From sequence record NZ_CP048040.1: DNA of 60,946 nucleotides; one strand, 5' to 3'. Numbering within the stretch: position 1 is the first letter of the stretch; every line of letters starts with the position of its first letter. The DNA comes from a plasmid. This document shows, in pieces, positions 21,082 to 52,651 of this stretch. The position numbers were made by a program, and so were the translations under genes. Under the pieces are notes generated by a model. The model searched no databases. It was not told where the DNA came from and saw only the letters and a list, made by a program, of their open reading frames with translations.

Positions 21082-21127
21082 ATTTTATTCTTGTAACGAT
21101 GCCATTTTGACTCTCAGAGAGCGTGGA

Positions 21128-21916
21128 ATGCCCGTGAAAGTAATCAGTTTCGCCAACCAAAAGGGCGGGGTGGGTAAAAGCACCCTTTGCCTGCAAATGG
21201 CCTTTTATCTTGTCGAGGCCGGTATGCGTGTCTTGGTAGTTGACATGGATACTCAAGGCAATACGTCGTCACGATTGGCCCCAAAGATTGAACTGGACAA
21301 TGGTTTAGAGCGAAGGGAGTATTATGGCACTCCAGCCTCAGCCTTGTTCTCGGCCAAGCCTATAAATATTAAGCCAATGCAATGTCCTGCAGGTATGGAT
21401 CTAATCCACACGCCGCGCAACGACCCTGATCTTGCCGAAATAGAGCAGCGTGATCTCAATATCGCGACACGACCGAGGCAGCATTTGGAACCTTTCATCC
21501 AAGGCTACGACTATGTGCTGATCGACTGCCCCCCGGCTCTTGGGAGAAAGTTAGCCGCAGCACTAGTAGCCTCAACGCACGTGGTCTGCCCTGTGAAGCT
21601 CTCTGGTTTTGCTGTCGATGGGGTCGAAGACATACTGACAACAATAATTGGGATTCAAGGCACTGAAAACCCACAGCTGCAATTGGTCGGCCTTGTAATA
21701 AATGATATGGACCGATCTGTTAGTACCGAACGAGCCATGCAAGAGTTACATGAAAGCGTGCCTGACATGCTGCTCACGAACAGGATCATGCACAGGCCAC
21801 CTTTGGACTCAGCCACTACGGCGGGTATTCCTGTGTGGAAGCTGCCTTATGCTCATGTGGCAGCAAAGGAAGTCAAAGATGTGTTGTCGGAAATAATTGA
21901 AAGGGTAGACAGATAA
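21128..21916 (+). CDS. parA: ParA-family partition ATPase
   Basis: KVISFANQKGGVGKST deviant Walker A; VVDMDTQGN. Confidence 0.8.
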   Translation: MPVKVISFANQKGGVGKSTLCLQMAFYLVEAGMRVLVVDMDTQGNTSSRLAPKIELDNGLERREYYGTPASALFSAKPINIKPMQCPAGMDLIHTPRNDPDLAEIEQRDLNIATRPRQHLEPFIQGYDYVLIDCPPALGRKLAAALVASTHVVCPVKLSGFAVDGVEDILTTIIGIQGTENPQLQLVGLVINDMDRSVSTERAMQELHESVPDMLLTNRIMHRPPLDSATTAGIPVWKLPYAHVAAKEVKDVLSEIIERVDR

Positions 21917-23070
21917 TGGGCAAGTTCGGTTCACTCCAAACTTTGACGCAACTGACAAAGATGGCTGCGGGCGGGGATAACATGATCCTAACCGTGCAAC
22001 CAGACGAGTTGGTGAGCGAAGAACAGGTACGCAAGATTTTTCGTAACTTGGATGCCCTGGCTGATTCGCTAGAAACCGAAGGCCAGCAGTCCCCTATTAT
22101 TGTCAGCCCCCGTAACAAGGATGGCAAATACGTCATTCAGAAGGGGGAACGTCGCTGGCGAGCAGCAAAGCTGCGCAACTTGGCAGTCAAGATCTATGTG
22201 AACAACACAGATCAGAGTGACATGGATGCGAAGGCTGGCCAATTAATAGAGAATATTCAGCGCGACAATCTGACGGCAATGGAAATTGCGGACGCATTGG
22301 GTGAGATGTCCGATTCAGGTATGACTGGAGTTCAGATTGCAAAGCGCATCAGTATGAGCACAAAATTCGTGTCAGTACATTTATCTTTGCGAAACTTATC
22401 TGAGCCGGTGCGAGCGCTAGTAGCTGATAATGTTACTGGTGACGCAGATTTGCTCTATACACTTGAGCAAATTGCCAAGATAGACGCTAAGCGCTGTATG
22501 GCCATGTGTGAACAGGCACGTGCAAACGGGATAACGCGTAAGCATGCAGTTCAAGTCTACAAAGTTTTGAAGGAACAAAAGGCGGCAGAAAAAGCGAGGG
22601 CTCAAGCCGAAACGCAAGCTCCAAAAATCGCTAGCCAGGATCGGGAATCAATAGTACCTACTACGCTACAAGCTACGGGGGGAGAATCTGCGGCAAGTGA
22701 AGAGACTCAGGTAGCCGCGACCAGAAATGCTGGGCCGGTAGTTGCCACTCCTTTGGAACCGCAGACAGGTTCAAAAACCAATCGGCCGAAAGATAAGAGT
22801 TTGTCTGATAACCCATTCCTGACAGACGAAGAAAAAGCGCAAGCCACTTCTCAATCAAGTAGTACCGAAGCGGTTAATCCTTTCATTCAGTCGGAATCTG
22901 GAGTGGTTGTTACTGTAAGACTATCTGATGACGTTGGCACAACTGGGCGCCTGTTGCTGGATCGGGAGCCTCAAGAAGAAACACTAGCGTGGGTGCGGAC
23001 TGCAGACGGTGATGAACTCGAAGTCGAAGTCTCTGCCCTGTCCATCACCAGTATAAAAATAAACGCATGA
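21916..23070 (+). CDS. parB: ParB/KorB-like DNA-binding protein
   Basis: ParB N-domain GQQSPIIV...QKGERRWRAAKL, HTH LTAMEIADAL; start overlaps parA stop. Confidence 0.75.
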   Translation: MGKFGSLQTLTQLTKMAAGGDNMILTVQPDELVSEEQVRKIFRNLDALADSLETEGQQSPIIVSPRNKDGKYVIQKGERRWRAAKLRNLAVKIYVNNTDQSDMDAKAGQLIENIQRDNLTAMEIADALGEMSDSGMTGVQIAKRISMSTKFVSVHLSLRNLSEPVRALVADNVTGDADLLYTLEQIAKIDAKRCMAMCEQARANGITRKHAVQVYKVLKEQKAAEKARAQAETQAPKIASQDRESIVPTTLQATGGESAASEETQVAATRNAGPVVATPLEPQTGSKTNRPKDKSLSDNPFLTDEEKAQATSQSSSTEAVNPFIQSESGVVVTVRLSDDVGTTGRLLLDREPQEETLAWVRTADGDELEVEVSALSITSIKINA

Positions 23071-38570: not shown

Positions 38571-38650
38571 CACCAAATTCTATTAGATAAAGCACCAAAT
38601 TCTATTAAATAAAACACCAAATTCTATTGATTTAACACCATAAATAAAAT
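38571..38650 (+). repeat. Rep_3 iterons: about 4 direct 22-bp repeats (core CACCAAATTCTATTA)
   Basis: Copies at 38571, 38593, 38615 and a degenerate one at 38636, just upstream of rep. Confidence 0.75.
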
Positions 38651-38687: not shown

Positions 38688-39635
38688 ATGAAAAATGAAT
38701 TAATAGTTAAAGATAATGCTCTGATTAATGCTAGCTACAATCTTGAGTTAACCGAACAAAGGCTCATTTTATTAGCGATCATGTCTGCAAGAGAATCTGG
38801 ACTAGGTATTACAGCGGACAGTACAATTGAAATACATGCAAAAGAGTATGCCGACAGATTTAACGTAACAATTGATGCTGCATATAAAGCTCTTAAAGAA
38901 GCAGCTAATACTCTTTTTGAAAGAAAATTTTACTATACAAAACAAGTACATGATTACCCGCAACTAAAAATATATATGTTTAAATCTCGTTGGGTTAGTC
39001 GGATTGCATATGCCGATGATTTTGCAACACTAGCAATTACTTTTGCTCCAGATGTAGTACCACTGATTACTCGACTAGAAGAACGGTTTACATACTACCA
39101 ATTCAAGCAGATAGCTCAGCTCACCAGTAAATATGCAATTCGCTTGTATGAATTACTGATTGCATGGCGTGAGATTGGTAAAATGCCACTTATTGAATTG
39201 TCTGATTTTCGGAAAAAAATAGGTGTTGAACCTGATGAATATCAAAGAATGGAGTTATTTAAAAGGCGTGTATTAGAACCGGCAATTAAACAAATTAACG
39301 GACACACTGATATAACTGTGTCGTATGATCAACATAAAAAAGGACGTACTATTTCAGGCTTTTCATTTAGATTTAAACAGAAGCAACAGCCTAAAATTGA
39401 AAAACTGATTGATCCAAAGCGCGACACTAATACTCCTGATTTTTTTATCCAAATGACCGATGCACAGCGCCATCTATTTGCAAATAAAATGTCTGAAATT
39501 CCCGAAATGTCTAAGTATTCACAAGGAACCGAAAGCTACCAACAGTTTGCTATTCGTATTGCAGATATGCTTTTACAACCTGAAAAATTTAGGGAACTTT
39601 ATCCAATCTTAGAAAAAGCTGGATTTAAGAGATAA
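38688..39635 (+). CDS. rep: Rep_3-family replication initiator (Acinetobacter RepAci type)
   Basis: Typical Rep_3 sequence; iterons upstream; about 30% GC. Confidence 0.8.
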   Translation: MKNELIVKDNALINASYNLELTEQRLILLAIMSARESGLGITADSTIEIHAKEYADRFNVTIDAAYKALKEAANTLFERKFYYTKQVHDYPQLKIYMFKSRWVSRIAYADDFATLAITFAPDVVPLITRLEERFTYYQFKQIAQLTSKYAIRLYELLIAWREIGKMPLIELSDFRKKIGVEPDEYQRMELFKRRVLEPAIKQINGHTDITVSYDQHKKGRTISGFSFRFKQKQQPKIEKLIDPKRDTNTPDFFIQMTDAQRHLFANKMSEIPEMSKYSQGTESYQQFAIRIADMLLQPEKFRELYPILEKAGFKR

Positions 39636-46357: not shown

Positions 46358-46500
46358 ATGTACCAAATATGTGGAATATTAATCACATATAAAAATTTCC
46401 GGTTTCATTTCTATAACAACATTCCACATATTTGGTACATAATAGGTAACATGGCTCATTTGGTACATTGGATTGTTATCACCACCTTTGGTACATTGAT
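46358..46500. promoter_or_regulatory. operator-like array: 20-bp inverted pair TGTACCAAATATGTGGAATA / TATTCCACATATTTGGTACA plus two more TTTGGTACATTG copies
   Basis: 46358-46377 and 46420-46439 perfect inverted copies; 46460 and 46490 direct; 50 bp upstream of gene at 46552. Confidence 0.45.
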
Positions 46501-46551
46501 TCTATGTTCCAGATAGATAGTAATTTGGAAAGGTACTGGATAGGAGTAATA

Positions 46552-47100
46552 ATGATGGGCGACGTCCAAAATCTTGACGTTATACGAGACTGGGAACACC
46601 TTAGCAGGACAAACGAAACGTCAGAACGCGACGATGTGACATCGGATGAACTTGATTCTGTAGGACGTACTTTCGTCCAGAATGTACGTGACCTTGTTGA
46701 ACAGGAACTTTATGTTGTTGCGACAGATGCACGGAAGGCGGCAGACATTTTTTGGGAGATCAACCAAGAGGTCAGGGAATCGGGCGTTGCCGGTGAACAA
46801 GGCTACTTCGGTACAAGAGTACGCGTGCTGAACAAAAGCATTGCAGCGACGTGGCACAAAAATCGCTTTGTGCCAGGACCAGGTGATAAGAAGAAAGTAT
46901 TCTCGACACATCTCGAGAAAGGTTTGGGCCCTCGTTATCCGACAAAGACATTTAAGGGCGCACGTGACTGGGAGCTTGAGGCGATACAGGTCACTGAAGA
47001 CAGGTATTCATTGCTTCGACAACGATCGAATGCTTTGTCAAAAATCCGCAGAGCCCTTTCAGAATATGAGCGTCTTTTAGACAAGTGCTATCAGGAGTAG
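46552..47100 (+). CDS. hypothetical protein (182 aa)
   Basis: ORF from MMGDVQNLDV. Confidence 0.5.
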   Translation: MMGDVQNLDVIRDWEHLSRTNETSERDDVTSDELDSVGRTFVQNVRDLVEQELYVVATDARKAADIFWEINQEVRESGVAGEQGYFGTRVRVLNKSIAATWHKNRFVPGPGDKKKVFSTHLEKGLGPRYPTKTFKGARDWELEAIQVTEDRYSLLRQRSNALSKIRRALSEYERLLDKCYQE

Positions 47101-47103
47101 GAA

Positions 47104-47391
47104 ATGACTACGCGAAATGCTTCTGCGGTTTCAAACGTTGCTTGGCGTCTTTCTGGTGCCCAACAGCGTTTAGGCACGACATACGAAGGGAAGCCAGCCC
47201 TTTCATCCATTAAAGCTTCTCAGGCTCGTTTACGTGGTGATATGGAACATATCTCTCATGAGTCAGCAGTGAACCGATATATGCAAGCTGATGCTCGCCG
47301 TACACATCGCCATACAAACGCAATCTTTGGATTTTTAGCTGCCACGGTTTTCGGTGTGATCGGCGCAGTCTACTTGTTTGTTCTTTCGTAA
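47104..47391 (+). CDS. tail-anchored small protein (95 aa, C-terminal TM)
   Basis: C-terminal AIFGFLAATVFGVIGAVYLFVLS. Confidence 0.45.
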   Translation: MTTRNASAVSNVAWRLSGAQQRLGTTYEGKPALSSIKASQARLRGDMEHISHESAVNRYMQADARRTHRHTNAIFGFLAATVFGVIGAVYLFVLS

Positions 47392-47414
47392 CACCGGGGG
47401 GAGACTTGAGAAAC

Positions 47415-48506
47415 ATGAGCAAGAGCAAGGGAGTAGCGGTAGTCGAAGTTGTTGACCACGTCGACGGCGAGAATATCGAGCTGCGAGAGCAGCTTAATTT
47501 GTTCGAGTACGTTGACTCAGATCTACGACGACGCAAAGAGTATTCAAACTCTGTAGACCTGTATGACAGCCTACCTAAGTACAGCTGGGACCAGCGTGAG
47601 ATTGAAGACGTCCAAGAAGCCAGCCGCATCCGTTGCATCAAGCTCGGAGGCCAGGAGTACCAGATTGAGGTTACACCTGCGGTGATCACGCGGGACAAGC
47701 GCAAGGTTTTCGTTTTTCCAAGTGCTCGTGAAGAGCTTGTTGAGGAGGCCTTGCGTAAGTTTGTTGTAGACGGACAAGGGACTGCTCACGGCGGTGAAGT
47801 CGGCGTATTCTTCACAATGTACCAACTGCAAAAAGAACTTGCAGAAAACGGCCGTACCTACAGCTTAACTGAGCTATCCGAAGCGTTAGAAGTGCTGAAT
47901 AAGGCAAACATCGAAATCTCAACGACGTCTGGTGATGCGGTCTTGAGCTCACCGCTGTTTCCAACGGTAGTGACAAGAAGCCGAAGTGAATATCTTAAGG
48001 CTCCCACGCAGTCAAAGTGTTACGCCCGCTTCAATGTGATGGTGACAGATTCCATCCTTAAACTTAAATACCGTCGCTACGACTACAAGCTTGGCATGTC
48101 GATCAAAAGCCACCTCGCTCGTTGGATTCACCGTCGGATGAGTCAAAACTGGACTCAAGCCAGCATAGACAAACCTTACACCTTCACCCAGACGTCTTAC
48201 CTTGCGGCCAGCCCTCGGGGGTTGTCCGAAACTATGAGCGAAAATACACGGGCGGTTAAGTCTGCGCTTGATACATTAAAGAAGCACGGTATTGTTGATC
48301 GCTACGATGCGGAGCCGGAAAAGGACGGACGCAAGATCATTGATGTCCGCTATCGTGTGTATGCAACCCAGGAGTTCGTATCGCAGACGATCTCCCACAA
48401 CCGTCACCGCAACGAATTAAGTGCCCATCAGTTCCAGGTGATGAAAAAGGGGCTGCAGAGAAGCAAGGGCAGACTTAGCCGCTCGAAGAAGGGTGAAGAA
48501 AGCTAG
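47415..48506 (+). CDS. candidate replication initiator (363 aa) of a second replicon
   Basis: Basic C-terminus; immediately followed by DnaA boxes and a large direct-repeat iteron array; no confident family assignment. Confidence 0.5.
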   Translation: MSKSKGVAVVEVVDHVDGENIELREQLNLFEYVDSDLRRRKEYSNSVDLYDSLPKYSWDQREIEDVQEASRIRCIKLGGQEYQIEVTPAVITRDKRKVFVFPSAREELVEEALRKFVVDGQGTAHGGEVGVFFTMYQLQKELAENGRTYSLTELSEALEVLNKANIEISTTSGDAVLSSPLFPTVVTRSRSEYLKAPTQSKCYARFNVMVTDSILKLKYRRYDYKLGMSIKSHLARWIHRRMSQNWTQASIDKPYTFTQTSYLAASPRGLSETMSENTRAVKSALDTLKKHGIVDRYDAEPEKDGRKIIDVRYRVYATQEFVSQTISHNRHRNELSAHQFQVMKKGLQRSKGRLSRSKKGEES

Positions 48507-48598
48507 CATCTGACTCACTCGCATTGATGCCCAATTGAATGACAGATCTGTAGCTGTTGTGGTTTACCTAGCGTTATCTCAGCACCATATACAACTTC

Positions 48599-48607
48599 TG
48601 TGGATAA
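48599..48607 (-). promoter_or_regulatory. DnaA box (TGTGGATAA = TTATCCACA on minus strand)
   Basis: Perfect 9-mer consensus. Confidence 0.5.
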
Positions 48608-48616
48608 CACCTCAAA

Positions 48617-48930
48617 ATACATATAGGTCTACTGCAGAGTTACCCTTACTCACACGCTAAACATATAGGTTTGATGCAGACAAACATATAGGTATGGTGC
48701 AGACTTCATTTTTCGACCAGTTATCCACAAGTAGAACATATAGGTTTATTGCAGAGTTAATATCCCCGTCCGTTTAAACCATATAGGTTTGCAGCAGAGT
48801 TCAAGTTGCCAGCCGCTAAACATATAGGTTTGTTGCAGAGATAAACTCAAAATTGTGGACAACCTGTGGCAACAGTACAACAACATATAGGTTTAATGCA
48901 GAGAAACATATAGGTATTTTGCAGACTTCA
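48617..48930 (+). repeat. iteron cluster 1: 8 direct copies of about 22 bp ACATATAGGTNTNNTGCAGAGTT at irregular 22-63 bp spacing
   Basis: Copies at about 48620, 48661, 48683, 48736, 48779, 48820, 48884, 48906. Confidence 0.7.
48721..48729 (+). promoter_or_regulatory. DnaA box TTATCCACA
   Basis: Perfect consensus inside the iteron cluster. Confidence 0.5.
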
Positions 48931-49265
48931 TGCCGAATATTTACTTCAATATCAACAAGTTATCTGCACTTTCCGTCAACCTATCCTGTTCTTATCCTTT
49001 TTTCCTTTTATATATCCAAATAAAGAATATCTGTCACTGACTTAGGAAGTACAGCCAAGGGGCATAGCCGAAGGAGCTTCAGCCTCTTTGCAAAATACAA
49101 TCTGCTTCGAGAACTGTCGAATCACTGTAAAGGCCCCACATGCGTTAAAAATGCATAAGCTAGGGGATGGTATTAACACTACCCTAAAAATCGAACACAG
49201 CACCGGAAAACAGGTTTCAAGCGCTATAGAGGTAGAGACCTCCCTCTCTTTGAATTTCAAAGCAA

Positions 49266-49290
49266 CCTCAGCACCCAAAACATGTAGGTT
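49266..49290 (+). repeat. isolated iteron copy AACATGTAGGTTTCATGCAGAGTT
   Basis: Same consensus. Confidence 0.5.
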
Positions 49291-50057
49291 TCATGCAGAG
49301 TTTGACCTAAGCCCTGGAGCATTCATCACGTAACCTGCCGTTAACACCATGTAAATTCCTAAGCAGATCTACCAAAGCAGATAAACGACAGCTTCATACC
49401 AGCCTGACAAAACCAATCATCAGGCCCCCGATCAACGCTCCACAAAATTTTTCAACACTAAATAATCCTGGCAAACGGATTCAGCTCCTACACAACAGAT
49501 ACCCAGGCAATTTCAATAACCATGCACTTCTCATGTTGGTATCGATCAATGCCATTTCAGTGCAATAAGTGCCACGCGAACAACACACTTAAAAAAATAG
49601 AAGCTAGCTTTTTGCATACTCCCAGCTACACCGGAAGAGAAAAATGAAAACAGCAACCACTGGTCAATAAACAAGGATGACTACTCCTAGCATCCAATCA
49701 AAAGACAAGTCACTACGGCAGCTCACATCTCCATCCACAAGGCATGCAAACCGCAAGAGCACGCATCACTGCAAACACGTCTACTGCATTAATGAATTAG
49801 CACATGAACGCTTCCCACATCGAACTTGGGTAAATACCTGGGCTCGGCTCTCGGATAAAACGGAAATCCTCTACGCCTCCAAAGGCACACCTTCACCAGA
49901 CCCACATCGGAGCAGTAAAACCATTCAGGAGCACATCGACCGGTCACAAATATGTCGCGTTGATCTGTTGACCTGTTGACGGAGATATCTATGATCCCCG
50001 GTTACTTCCCCGATTTAAGGGCTAATCATGCTTAATGAAGGTGGGTAATCCAGCCAA

Positions 50058-50870
50058 GTAACGACCTAAACATATAGGTTCATTGCAGAGTTCAAGCAAA
50101 GCTGCCAGGAAAAAAATCGAACGGAAACCTCAAAACATAGAGGTTTACTGCAGAGTTCCTGTGGTCGATCAAACATGCAGTGTTTTTGCTTTCAGAAAGC
50201 ATTCATACATATAGGTTCATTGCAGAGTTCGTCAAAAACATTCGTTCAGAACATATAGGTTTGATGCAGAGTTCATCTTGAACTCCAGACATCTTTAATT
50301 GTCAGAAGACATTGAACATATAGGTTTGGTGCAGACTTCAGTAGTACAAACAGCAACAAACTAACATATAGGTTTGTTGCAGAGTTCGCGTAAATCATTG
50401 ATTTTATTTAAAAAATCTATTAAAAAACGGTCGTAATTTTGCATTAAGTACGCTTGTCGTTGAACAGTCGGGTTAAAAGCGGGTTTCATGACCAATCCTC
50501 TCCCTAACTCAGTCGCCCAAAGATGCAATGACATATAGGTTTGTTGCAGAGTTCATAGGAGAACAAAGAACATCAACATGTAGGTTTACTGCAGAGTTCA
50601 TCTAACCTATTGAATAGAAAAGGTTTTTTTACTATTGCCTACCAGATCAACATATAGGTCTATTGCAGAGTTGACGCCTGAGTGTCGGGTTTGAAGCGGG
50701 TTAGCTGATATTTTTTCAGACTAACCATATAGGTTTACTGCAGAGTTAGACGCTTAACTGTCAGGTTTGACGCGCTTAAGCTGCTTTGTATGGCTAAACA
50801 GCAAACAAGAAACCCGCACGAAACCGTACAGTTTTGTGAGAGTCAAACATATAGGTCTCTTGCAGACTTG
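50058..50870 (+). repeat. iteron cluster 2: about 11 further direct copies of the same 22-bp unit
   Basis: Copies at about 50061, 50135, 50207, 50251, 50317, 50364, 50530, 50571, 50650, 50727, 50848. Confidence 0.7.
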
Positions 50871-51025
50871 ACGCCAAAACCGTGTTCACAAGTGGTTTTA
50901 ACGCAGTTGCGGGATAATGGTCTAAAAGGTTACAGTGTTACAGAAGAGCACGCGGGTGCGATACGCACATTCTTGCTGGATAGTGATGTGCACCAGGGAT
51001 AGAATTTATAGGCTCAACAACACAA

Positions 51026-51418
51026 ATGAAAAGAACAGCACCATGCGTGTTGGGACTGCATTCATTGGTCCAACCAATGAAGTGCTTCGCTGTGCGCATG
51101 AAAGAATTTGACGATCAGAACTTTCAGGAAGACGGCACGATGCTCTGGCCTGAAGTAGTGATCTGCTCAACTGCGGAGCAAGCTTATAGACTCTGTGAAT
51201 TCTTCAATTCTGAAAGTTTCAAAGTAGATTGGGAAACTTGGCAAGAGGAAGAACCAGACCTTACGGTAGATGTAGCTCAACAACGTTGGCTTGAACAAGA
51301 CTTTGCTATCTATGTTGTTGAGGAAGTGCCAGCGTTGCATAAGTACGAACATCTGTACCGAATTTCGCAAAGCCTCAGTGCTTGCTCTGATTTATTTGAA
51401 GATCTACTGTACGTATGA
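51026..51418 (+). CDS. acidic hypothetical protein (130 aa)
   Basis: ORF rich in D/E. Confidence 0.35.
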   Translation: MKRTAPCVLGLHSLVQPMKCFAVRMKEFDDQNFQEDGTMLWPEVVICSTAEQAYRLCEFFNSESFKVDWETWQEEEPDLTVDVAQQRWLEQDFAIYVVEEVPALHKYEHLYRISQSLSACSDLFEDLLYV

Positions 51419-51625
51419 CCCTGATGCATTTCCAGGGAGGCAGGTGATTACATTAGGCACCAGCGCATACCTTCCTTTATTGATGTTCCACCTTATCTTA
51501 AGTGATTCGCACATGGCCACAGCGAGATATTGTTGTGCCCTGGCTTTGCTGTTGCCATGGAACATTGGGATGAAAACGCAGAGAAGGGAATTAGAACGGG
51601 CTCCGCAATTTTGCGTGCCAATTTA

Positions 51626-51639
51626 TTTCGCATGCGAAA
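51626..51639. promoter_or_regulatory. palindrome copy 4, upstream of RES-Xre operon
   Basis: Identical 14-mer about 80 bp before antitoxin start. Confidence 0.6.
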
Positions 51640-51719
51640 TCTGCTCCGGAGTCTTTCACTTGTTTGCTTCAAATGATAGAATTAAAACCATCAATTGAAT
51701 GGTTTTAAGGAGAGCTATC

Positions 51720-52187
51720 ATGGAAATTATTGATGCTACAGTTGCGCCGACAAAACTCGGCGGTAAGACAGCGGTCAAAGACTTTTGGGGGATGGCTCAC
51801 CGTTTGGGAGGCATGAGTGAATTAGAGCGTATTCGGTCGATCAAAGCAGGGTTTCCCATCTACATGGCTGATGCCACCAAAAACACGTTCCGGATGACAA
51901 GTCAGAGCGTTAGCGAACTATTGAATCTGTCTGTGACCACGTACGAACGTCGTCGCCGCGATTCTAAGCCATTGGATGTTGCCGCATCTGAACGCCTAGA
52001 TCGTGTTGCGGCAGTTGCGCTCTTGGCCGAAGATGTTTTTGAGGACAAGACCGATGCGGCGGTCTGGCTTTCTTCACCAAACAAGGCTTTAGGTGGAAAC
52101 ACTCCCGTAATGCACTGCGAGACTGCGATTGGTGCTCAGCAGGTTAGGCGGATCCTCAATGCGCTTGAGTGGGGTGGTGCGGCCTGA
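51720..52187 (+). CDS. Xre-like/DUF2384 antitoxin of a RES-Xre module
   Basis: C-terminal VWLSSPNKALGGNTPVMHCETAIGAQQVRRILNALEWG typical of DUF2384. Confidence 0.65.
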   Translation: MEIIDATVAPTKLGGKTAVKDFWGMAHRLGGMSELERIRSIKAGFPIYMADATKNTFRMTSQSVSELLNLSVTTYERRRRDSKPLDVAASERLDRVAAVALLAEDVFEDKTDAAVWLSSPNKALGGNTPVMHCETAIGAQQVRRILNALEWGGAA

Positions 52188-52651
52188 TGATTGCGTGGAG
52201 AATTAGTAAGGCCAAGCGGGCAGGAGATTTGTCCGGGATCGGTGCTGCGCTCGAGGGTGGTCGTTGGAACGATGTTGATGTGCCAGCAGTGTATATGGGC
52301 ATGACACCAGCTATTTGTTGTCTTGAGACATTTGTACATGCAACAGGTGTGCCGCAGTTTCCGCTGAAAATTACGCGCTTCATCCTTCCCGAAGATGAGG
52401 CGCTTTTCTTTGAGCCGGAGCCTAATACTTTGCCAAATGGTTGGGCCTCAGTTCCGTCAGATCGCCCTAGTATGAATTTTGGTACCCGCTGGCTTAAAAG
52501 TCAGAGTCATCTTGGTCTGATTGTGCCTTCGGCTGTACTACCGCTTGAGCGCAACGTTGTGTTGAACCCTGCTCATCCAGCCATTGCAGATGTCAAAATC
52601 GACGCTCACTTTGAGTTCATGTACGACAAGCGCATGTTTGCGGGCCAGTAG
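52187..52651 (+). CDS. RES-domain toxin (NAD+-targeting family)
   Basis: GGRWN (Arg), CLETFVH (Glu), LIVPSAVLPLERNVVLNPAHP (Ser) RES signature; ATGA overlap with antitoxin. Confidence 0.7.
   Translation: MIAWRISKAKRAGDLSGIGAALEGGRWNDVDVPAVYMGMTPAICCLETFVHATGVPQFPLKITRFILPEDEALFFEPEPNTLPNGWASVPSDRPSMNFGTRWLKSQSHLGLIVPSAVLPLERNVVLNPAHPAIADVKIDAHFEFMYDKRMFAGQ

Follow-up and report, generated by a model that had tools for sequence, protein, structure and literature searches.

The replication locus of NZ_CP048040.1

We analysed a 60,946-nucleotide stretch of plasmid DNA (sequence record NZ_CP048040.1; hereafter, the window) and describe here the replication locus between positions 47415 and 50870. 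A sequence-only reading of the window had proposed an iteron-type replication module at this place, in which DnaA boxes and then iterons come after a Rep gene, and this is the order that we find. The locus comprises a repA gene that encodes 363 aa from its ATG, the length that had been read, a compact core of eight iterons with DnaA boxes and an AT-rich tract and, past a spacer, twelve further iterons. We interpret it as the native replicon, of the theta type and under iteron control, of a conjugative plasmid related to IncA/C, supplemented by a distal array for copy control, and give this statement as a whole a probability of about 0.75. The features of the locus are:

47415-48506, plus strand: repA, encoding a 363-amino-acid (aa) iteron initiator of the IncA/C RepA family (open reading frame (ORF) from ATG, homology and predicted fold)
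48599-48607, minus strand: DnaA box 1, TGTGGATAA on the top strand
48619-48928, plus strand: core origin iterons 1-8, start-to-start spacing 42, 23, 52, 43, 41, 63 and 23 bp
48721-48729, plus strand: DnaA box 2, between iterons 3 and 4, TTATCCACA
48854-48862, minus strand: DnaA box 3, between iterons 6 and 7, TGTGGACAA, one mismatch
48929-49040, no strand: AT-rich tract, presumed DNA-unwinding element, 65% A+T and G-poor
49041-49279, no strand: spacer A, non-conserved non-coding filler with no homology in the related loci L004, L005 and L007 and no intact ORF
49280-49302, plus strand: first distal iteron (the "lone" copy), from the pattern scan and the iteron maps of relatives
49303-50069 (767 bp), no strand: G-poor, A+C-rich tract, lineage-specific and non-coding, present in pGZAF1_VIM and L092 only
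50070-50869, plus strand: distal iteron array of 11 copies, spacing 65, 72, 44, 65, 48, 167, 45, 74, 75 and 122 bp
50456-50490, 50673-50707 and 50749-50783 (direct) and 50806-50833 (inverted): secondary repeats of the GTCGGGTTWRAAGCGGGTT type, 35-nt units, interleaved with the last distal iterons

RepA is related to the IncC initiator and has a predicted iteron-initiator fold

A tblastn search of the plasmid database PLSDB with the Rep protein matched 1304 plasmid records, conjugative for the most part. The RepA encoded by the first gene of the Alcaligenes faecalis plasmid pGZAF1_VIM (NZ_KY623659.1; hereafter pGZAF1) is 99.7% identical. IncC RepA, represented by hundreds of records, shares 43% identity over 89% of the length (E 6e-85), and the Rep proteins of large Pseudomonas plasmids and megaplasmids share ~33%. 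Altogether 99 homologues were found, and Rep aligns within a 40-sequence alignment of the family. Scans of the ORF against the Pfam and NCBIfam profiles returned no Rep family at E values up to 1 and nothing above noise level, and the protein had looked unplaceable for this reason; the Rep_3 profiles (PF01051/PF21205) do not match it either.

An AlphaFold2 model was built on 39 homologues (predicted local distance difference test score 82.3, predicted template modelling (TM) score 0.81). Foldseek matched this model to solved structures of RctB domains 2-3 (E 5e-7), RepE54 (E 4e-5) and the R6K pi protein (E 6e-5), each with a probability of 1.00 and a TM score of ~0.55-0.63 on the target. Judging from the model, Rep has two tandem winged-helix domains, which is the fold of iteron initiators of the RepE, pi, TrfA and RctB class. 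The Rep-family profile gave 0 matches among the sequences of solved structures, and by this search Rep has no detectable sequence homology to RctB, which is also longer (658 aa versus 363 aa). The sequence-only reading could not place Rep in a known family; its relation to IncC RepA and its predicted fold now do so.

Twenty iterons in a bipartite array

The whole window was scanned with the pattern ACATATAGGTTTNNTGCAGAGTT, tolerating up to three mismatches, and compared with 100 shuffles. Exactly 20 iterons were found, all on the plus strand, and none in the 100 shuffles. The conserved unit, which is also the consensus of the weight matrix, is aAACATATAGGTTTnnTGCAGAGTTc; in a position-weight-matrix scan of the 61 kb the members score 34-42 bits, with 0 additional iterons above 12 bits. 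The sequence-only reading had counted about 20 copies of one orientation in two clusters and a lone copy, and had called the array large and bipartite, all of which agrees with the 8 + 1 + 11 layout. Its lone copy exists but lies at 49280-49302 instead of 49266, and its other coordinate offsets are small.

The iteron consensus found here, aAACATATAGGTTTnnTGCAGAGTT, is not that of IncC or IncA proper. The published IncC iteron, yaTRTGGGNNcgcTGCACG (PMC7433901; IncA, yaTRTGGGDNHgcTGCACG), and CATATAGGTTTnnTGCAGA align position by position, sharing the 19-bp layout CATRT.GG.....TGCA.., and differ at what are likely specificity positions, with TRTGGG replaced by TATAGG and TGCACG by TGCAGA in the window. 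The IncC pattern has 0 matches in the window, and the pattern of the window has 0 matches in IncC. Across relatives the iteron sequence co-varies with Rep, reading CATCWAGGTTTnnTGCATA in L010 and CATATAGGnnnnnTGCATA in L009. RepA itself, at 43%, is far from the near-identity expected within IncC and IncA proper. Because both the Rep and the iteron sequences differ from those of IncC, we predict a separate incompatibility group.

The core origin is conserved and follows the layout of IncC

A scan of genome contigs with the single Rep protein returned no close relatives, and a profile scan of genome contigs gave relatives of at most 42% identity only; the closer relatives were obtained via protein-cluster look-ups. 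Iterons were then mapped in the window, in pGZAF1, in six related loci and in two metagenome contigs. All of these carry eight proximal iterons with a spacing of essentially 42, 23, 52, 42/43, 41, 63 and 23 bp. The spacing is identical in pGZAF1, L004, L005 and L092, has 42 for 43 in L007 and L093, is nearly the same in L010 and differs more in L009; in the relative with 52% Rep identity the sixth interval is 72 instead of 63 bp.

The window has just two perfect DnaA boxes (TTATCCACA), at 48599 and 48721, exactly where two boxes had been read before. By count alone this pair is not significant, since 11 of 100 shuffles have at least two. Box 1 corresponds to the right half of an inverted box pair in the relatives and in IncC, the left half of which is degenerate in the window. 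Box 2 reads TTGTCCACA, TTTTCCACA or TTCTCCACA in closer relatives and is missing in those with 52-54% Rep identity. Box 3 lies at the same position in six of seven aligned sequences; its counterpart is TGTGAATAA, with two mismatches, in L010 and TGTGGATAA in IncC.

The AT-rich tract at 48929-49040 is 100% identical to pGZAF1. It contains a block, CCTATCCTGTTCTTATCCTTTTTTCCTTTTATATATCC, at 48980-49017 (CCTATCCTGTTCTTATCC...TATATCC) that is retained even by relatives whose Rep is only 52% identical and can also be recognised in IncC. Over 48597-49040, relatives whose Rep proteins are 66-91% identical retain 72-77% identity (blastn), while the spacer that follows is unmatched.

Comparison with IncC and IncA plasmids (pVCR94, RA1, pB557-NDM), for which we relied on PMC7433901 and on the IncC sequence itself, reveals a common grammar of the origin of vegetative replication (oriV), located directly after repA: a DnaA-box pair, iterons, a DnaA box, iterons 23 bp apart and an AT-rich tract. 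In IncC these elements are the TTATCCACA/TGTGCATAA pair, iterons, TGTGGATAA, three iterons 23 bp apart and an AT-rich tract with CCTAACCTGTTTTTAACC (CCTAWCCTGTTYTTAWCC). The AT-rich tracts of the window and of IncC share the block CCTAWCCTGTT.TTA.CC, and the core layout aligns with positions 1620-2115 of IncC pB557-NDM. Further afield, the usual array in 80 distant family loci from many phyla consists of 8-9 helically phased iterons over ~250-300 bp directly after rep. We assign the functional core oriV to 48575-49040 because of this conserved core, the IncC grammar and the family-wide array of 8-9 iterons, and the comparison makes it highly probable that the backbone replicon is of the RepA/C family with its core at this place. 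By this comparison, the phased core of eight iterons is the ancestral module in a family of Rep proteins that occurs in many phyla, and A/C-like plasmids add auxiliary iteron clusters to it at differing positions.

In GTDB genomes (loci L016-L091) the family of RepA/C-type initiators extends well beyond the Gammaproteobacteria, with examples in Pyrinomonadaceae (Acidobacteriota), Methylococcales and Myxococcota metagenome-assembled genomes. These initiators nearly always have 8-9 helically phased iterons directly after rep, at spacings of 22, 32, 43, 53, 63 and 74 bp. One locus with a Rep of 53% identity (L011, on a contig of GCA_040959255.1) has another gene context and no downstream iteron array; it shows two inverted iteron-like sites ~2.7 kb upstream and palindromic CCCACATATGTGG repeats.

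Distal iterons are a conserved, displaced auxiliary array

Distal iterons are present in the relatives in 5-14 copies each, always in the same orientation, and the gap from the last core iteron to the first distal one is 374-568 bp in every relative. In the window this first distal iteron is the "lone" copy at 49280. L004, and in part L005, repeat the spacing found between the last copies (167, 45, 74, 75 and 122 bp). Between the window and pGZAF1, the distal iterons are 97.6% identical and the DNA that separates them 91.6% (Fisher p = 0.001). When four lineages are compared, 61% of columns are invariant in the iterons versus 16% between them (p = 6e-22), a contrast that is inflated by the alignment having been anchored by the iterons themselves. 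By these sequence comparisons the distal iterons are under purifying selection.

The best structural match of the Rep model, RctB domains 2-3, points to Vibrio cholerae chromosome 2. There, ori2 is composed of a minimal origin and an adjacent large control region (incII) with extra initiator sites. The region described here is not known to have 39-mer-type sites, Dam-methylation-dependent sites or crtS-type control, unlike V. cholerae ori2. P1 incA and mini-F incC are comparable in that a large low-copy plasmid carries, apart from its minimal origin, a second cluster of iterons of the same sequence and orientation. These clusters control copy number by handcuffing or titration. The twelve iterons beyond the core and the AT-rich tract are likewise extra copies outside the minimal origin. 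In P1 and F, however, the auxiliary cluster lies across the rep gene from the origin, whereas here both clusters are downstream of repA. With 12 copies, the auxiliary cluster of the window is also the larger one compared with P1 and F; its iterons are dispersed at distances of 44-167 bp and alternate with repeats of a second type. IncC has 14 iterons in ~760 bp, five of them extra copies between repA and the core; in the window 20 iterons extend over 2.25 kb, with the 12 extra copies beyond the AT-rich tract and a variable spacer. Handcuffing for R6K is cited in PMC7433901. We consider it rather likely, from the analogy with P1 and F, that the distal array controls copy number.

The array might instead act positively, as part of an extended or second origin, in the manner of the R6K alpha and beta origins looping to gamma or of an enhancer, with the spacer as the loop. 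Its constant orientation, the constrained distance of its first copy from the core, the conserved spacing of its right half and a gap of at least 0.4 kb that is kept in every lineage while its sequence is not would all fit such a role. On the other hand, the array is unaccompanied by a DnaA box or a conserved AT-rich block, and for most members of the Rep family a core of 8-9 iterons is all that replication uses. The range of 5-14 copies among close relatives also fits a dosage-type control better than an origin. A positive element therefore seems unlikely to us, and copy control is the function that we prefer.

The secondary repeats permit a further interpretation, in which the distal array and the GTCGGGTT..GCGGGTT repeats form a composite site for a second protein and RepA is secondary. 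Such a site could be centromere-like, a silencing site or an operator for the downstream 130-aa ORF. The second repeat family is confined to 50456-50833, its 19-nt core motif has a chance expectation of 0.02, and it is kept in L004 and L005. Moreover, an ORF of ~125 aa always follows the array, and a promoter-like site lies at 50977-51005. Yet the window has a separate ParA/ParB at 21107-23070 and the relatives also have a ParM/ParR-like pair, with their own upstream regions. The secondary motif is found nowhere else in the window, so that no regulon is defined, and L007 keeps the distal iterons with the motif in weak traces only. We regard a composite site as doubtful and retain copy control by the iterons. 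AcaCD boxes were considered as an identity for the secondary repeats and dropped, there being no occurrences elsewhere in the window.

Directly after the last iteron lies a conserved palindrome, AAAACCGYGTTCACAAGYGGTTTT (50873-50896), the arms of which differ by paired C/T changes in the closest relatives. A possible role is that of a terminator-like hairpin, active in both directions, which would separate the origin region from the downstream ORF. This acidic ORF of ~130 aa (51026-51418) has no Pfam or NCBIfam match, and in all relatives examined the iteron region is followed by an ORF of 122-132 aa. The ORF may be part of the replicon or serve leading-region functions.

The G-poor tract is a lineage-specific filler

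Past 49040, similarity is restricted to pGZAF1 (93.5%) and the metagenome contig L092, which is 95.9% identical when the entire compared region is counted. When the spacer was searched against all plasmids in PLSDB with sensitive blastn settings, pGZAF1 was the only match, and between the spacers of different lineages the iterons are the sole shared sequence. In this lineage only, the 767-bp tract is present as additional DNA between distal iterons 1 and 2. The sequence-only reading had described a G-depleted tract of 1.1 kb. The bias is real, as GC skew reaches -0.37/-0.38 and AT skew +0.26/+0.35 over ~49300-49900, but of the gap of 1141 bp only ~600 bp are strongly G-poor.

The tract could be functional as a non-coding RNA or as a strand-biased replication or transcription element. 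The extreme strand bias speaks for this, as do its retention in three independent sequences and the best promoter-like match of the region (10/12), at 49968-49995, which points into the distal array. Against it, the tract is missing from L004, L005, L007, L009 and L010, all of which have both iteron clusters. Of all segments that were compared to pGZAF1 it also has the lowest identity (92.5%, versus 99.6% for repA), with indels of 4, 1 and 8 bp. The -35 element of the promoter-like match exists only through an 8-bp duplication in the window, where pGZAF1 has TTCACG, and promoter-like sites are no commoner than in shuffles (7 versus 7.1). That duplication also accounts for the TGTTGAC tandem at 49964-49981, which had been pointed out before: the tandem is real but unique to the window, pGZAF1 having a single CTGTTCAC, and we rejected it as a functional element. 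The tract has no ORF of more than 100 aa, and an Rfam scan of 46-52 kb at E values up to 1 gave one spurious microRNA match, outside the region.

IncC plasmids have, at the equivalent place, a minus-strand membrane-protein gene with the same A+C-rich composition of the top strand. A remnant of that gene was rejected as the source of the tract, as tblastn was negative and six-frame translation gave short ORFs only; a decayed gene of such kind is a possible explanation for the composition bias. A functional tract is very improbable in our judgement. Because of its low conservation and its indels, and because it has no ORF of more than 100 aa and no Rfam match, we conclude that the tract is non-functional filler of this plasmid lineage. 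The idea that it is a designed part of the origin had to be given up, since it is lineage-specific, non-coding and fast-evolving, with no counterpart in relatives that keep both clusters.

The window and pGZAF1 share the same 20 iterons, their spacing and the G-poor tract, with 96% identity over 47415-50998. Divergence is below 1.5% in repA and the core and 5-7% right of ~49300. This drop in identity suggests that recombination had a breakpoint within the origin region, or that the segment of repA and the core was exchanged recently. Over the longer interval 46400-52650, mobI, repA and the core oriV are 98.5-100% identical to pGZAF1, and the G-poor tract, the distal array and the Xre/RES genes 92.5-94.6%; the region of the 130-aa ORF, between the diverged segments, is ~98% identical.

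RepA/oriV is native to an IncA/C-type backbone

Directly upstream of repA lie a mobI gene (PF19456, E 1e-23) and then a 95-aa ORF. The order mobI, 95-aa ORF, repA is also found in pGZAF1 and in metagenomic relatives with Rep proteins 91, 81, 66, 54 and 52% identical, and corresponds to the order mobI, small ORF, repA of IncC, where RepA is annotated with 366 aa. In pVCR94, repA is vcrx003, with the conserved transfer factor Vcrx001, presumably MobI, ahead of it. L005, L009 and L010 share the longer order traG, SLT (lytic transglycosylase), FlhDC-like, ParM, mobI, 95-aa ORF and repA, followed by 2.2-2.5 kb of non-coding DNA and the ~125-aa ORF. The transfer genes of the window encode TraI_2 (a MOBH relaxase), the coupling protein TraD, and TraE, TraK and TraB of the F-type (MPF-F) apparatus. 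The locus thus combines a RepA-homologous initiator, an oriV directly after repA with 19-bp direct iterons, DnaA boxes and an AT-rich tract, and the backbone synteny of IncA/C plasmids (mobI, small ORF, repA, with MOBH and an F-type apparatus). The genes for the AcaCD-type (FlhC/FlhD-like) activator that belongs to this synteny were seen in L005, L009, L010 and pGZAF1.

Two replication modules had been proposed for this plasmid, and a Rep_3 unit is indeed present in addition:

38571-38636: three tandem 22-bp iterons of the Rep_3 unit, CACCAAATTCTATTAGATAAAG, just upstream of the Rep_3 gene
38688-39635: Rep_3 initiator (Rep3_N + Rep3_C), from profile matches

The Rep_3 gene has ~73% DNA identity to repM of small Acinetobacter plasmids. 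It lies inside a mosaic at 36.4-46.1 kb with IS26, IS4321, a Tn3-family remnant and a resistance gene. The unit looks like a captured small plasmid, and the plasmid of the window is therefore a co-integrate. In the window this resistance mosaic, bounded by insertion sequences, abuts mobI and replaces the ParM/acaCD segment of pGZAF1. The label "second replicon" that the sequence-only reading had given to RepA/oriV does not fit, as the module sits in IncA/C-type backbone order beside MOBH and MPF-F transfer genes: it is native to the backbone, and the Rep_3 unit is an acquired passenger.

The 95-aa ORF (47104-47391) has a hydrophobic C-terminus and is separated from the start of repA by only 23 bp; every relative with the upstream region recovered has an ORF of 95-98 aa at the same place. 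It is probably co-transcribed with repA because it adjoins the repA start and is kept in the relatives.

A model for initiation and copy control

Based on this arrangement, we infer that RepA monomers would bind the eight helically phased core iterons at 48619-48928, and that host DnaA would bind the two or three DnaA boxes interspersed among them. RepA and DnaA together would then melt the AT-rich tract at 48929-49040, where the replisome would be loaded. The 12 distal iterons would provide added RepA sites outside the core that most probably curb copy number and cause incompatibility. They may do so by titrating RepA and by pairing with the origin iterons through RepA bridges (handcuffing), as proposed above by analogy with P1 incA and F incC.

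Several points weigh against this model. Each of its steps has been deduced from sequence and from what is established for iteron plasmids, and the cross-lineage contrast in favour of selection on the distal iterons is inflated, as stated above. A weight-matrix scan found no inverted half-iteron operator near repA, which leaves autoregulation unaccounted for. The distal array lies past the AT-rich tract, whereas the extra iterons of IncC lie between repA and the core; the analogy with P1 and F is for this reason one of function, not of position. Finally, the right half of the array has a conserved spacing and a second repeat type. This hints at a more structured role or at a second binding protein, and titration alone needs neither.

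One could also imagine that in the pGZAF1-like clade of IncA/C relatives the control iterons were relocated and multiplied to form a structured locus past the unwinding element, made up of 5-14 iterons that in part have fixed spacing and are interleaved with the second conserved repeat. Such a locus would act via long-range RepA looping across a spacer constrained in length but not in sequence, possibly with a second DNA-binding partner. We hold this to be improbable; if true, it would represent a distal-looping geometry of copy control undescribed for IncA/C or other iteron plasmids.

Relevance for plasmid typing and neighbouring genes

The element is of an ordinary kind, and its lineage is already in GenBank as pGZAF1, a record that lists only a "RepB family plasmid replication initiator protein", with no origin features in its table. 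What deserves note as a variation is the auxiliary iteron array, because it is large and displaced. Multidrug resistance is carried to a major extent by plasmids of the IncA/C type, and the present lineage has a known representative in a VIM-carbapenemase plasmid from Alcaligenes faecalis. MOB-suite typing, as given in PLSDB, assigns pGZAF1 no replicon and calls it non-mobilizable. Replicon-typing schemes miss the lineage, and placement with RepA/C, now that the iterons are defined, gives a typing marker, a predicted new incompatibility group and a minimal-origin fragment for vectors or curing tools. For the co-integrate studied here, the native replicon to be typed is repA-oriV, not the Rep_3 unit.

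Downstream of the locus, an Xre-like antitoxin (PF20432, PF09722) and a RES-domain toxin (PF08808) are encoded at 51699-52651. The same pair is present in pGZAF1, where it is followed by umuDC and an integrase gene in the same order as in the window.

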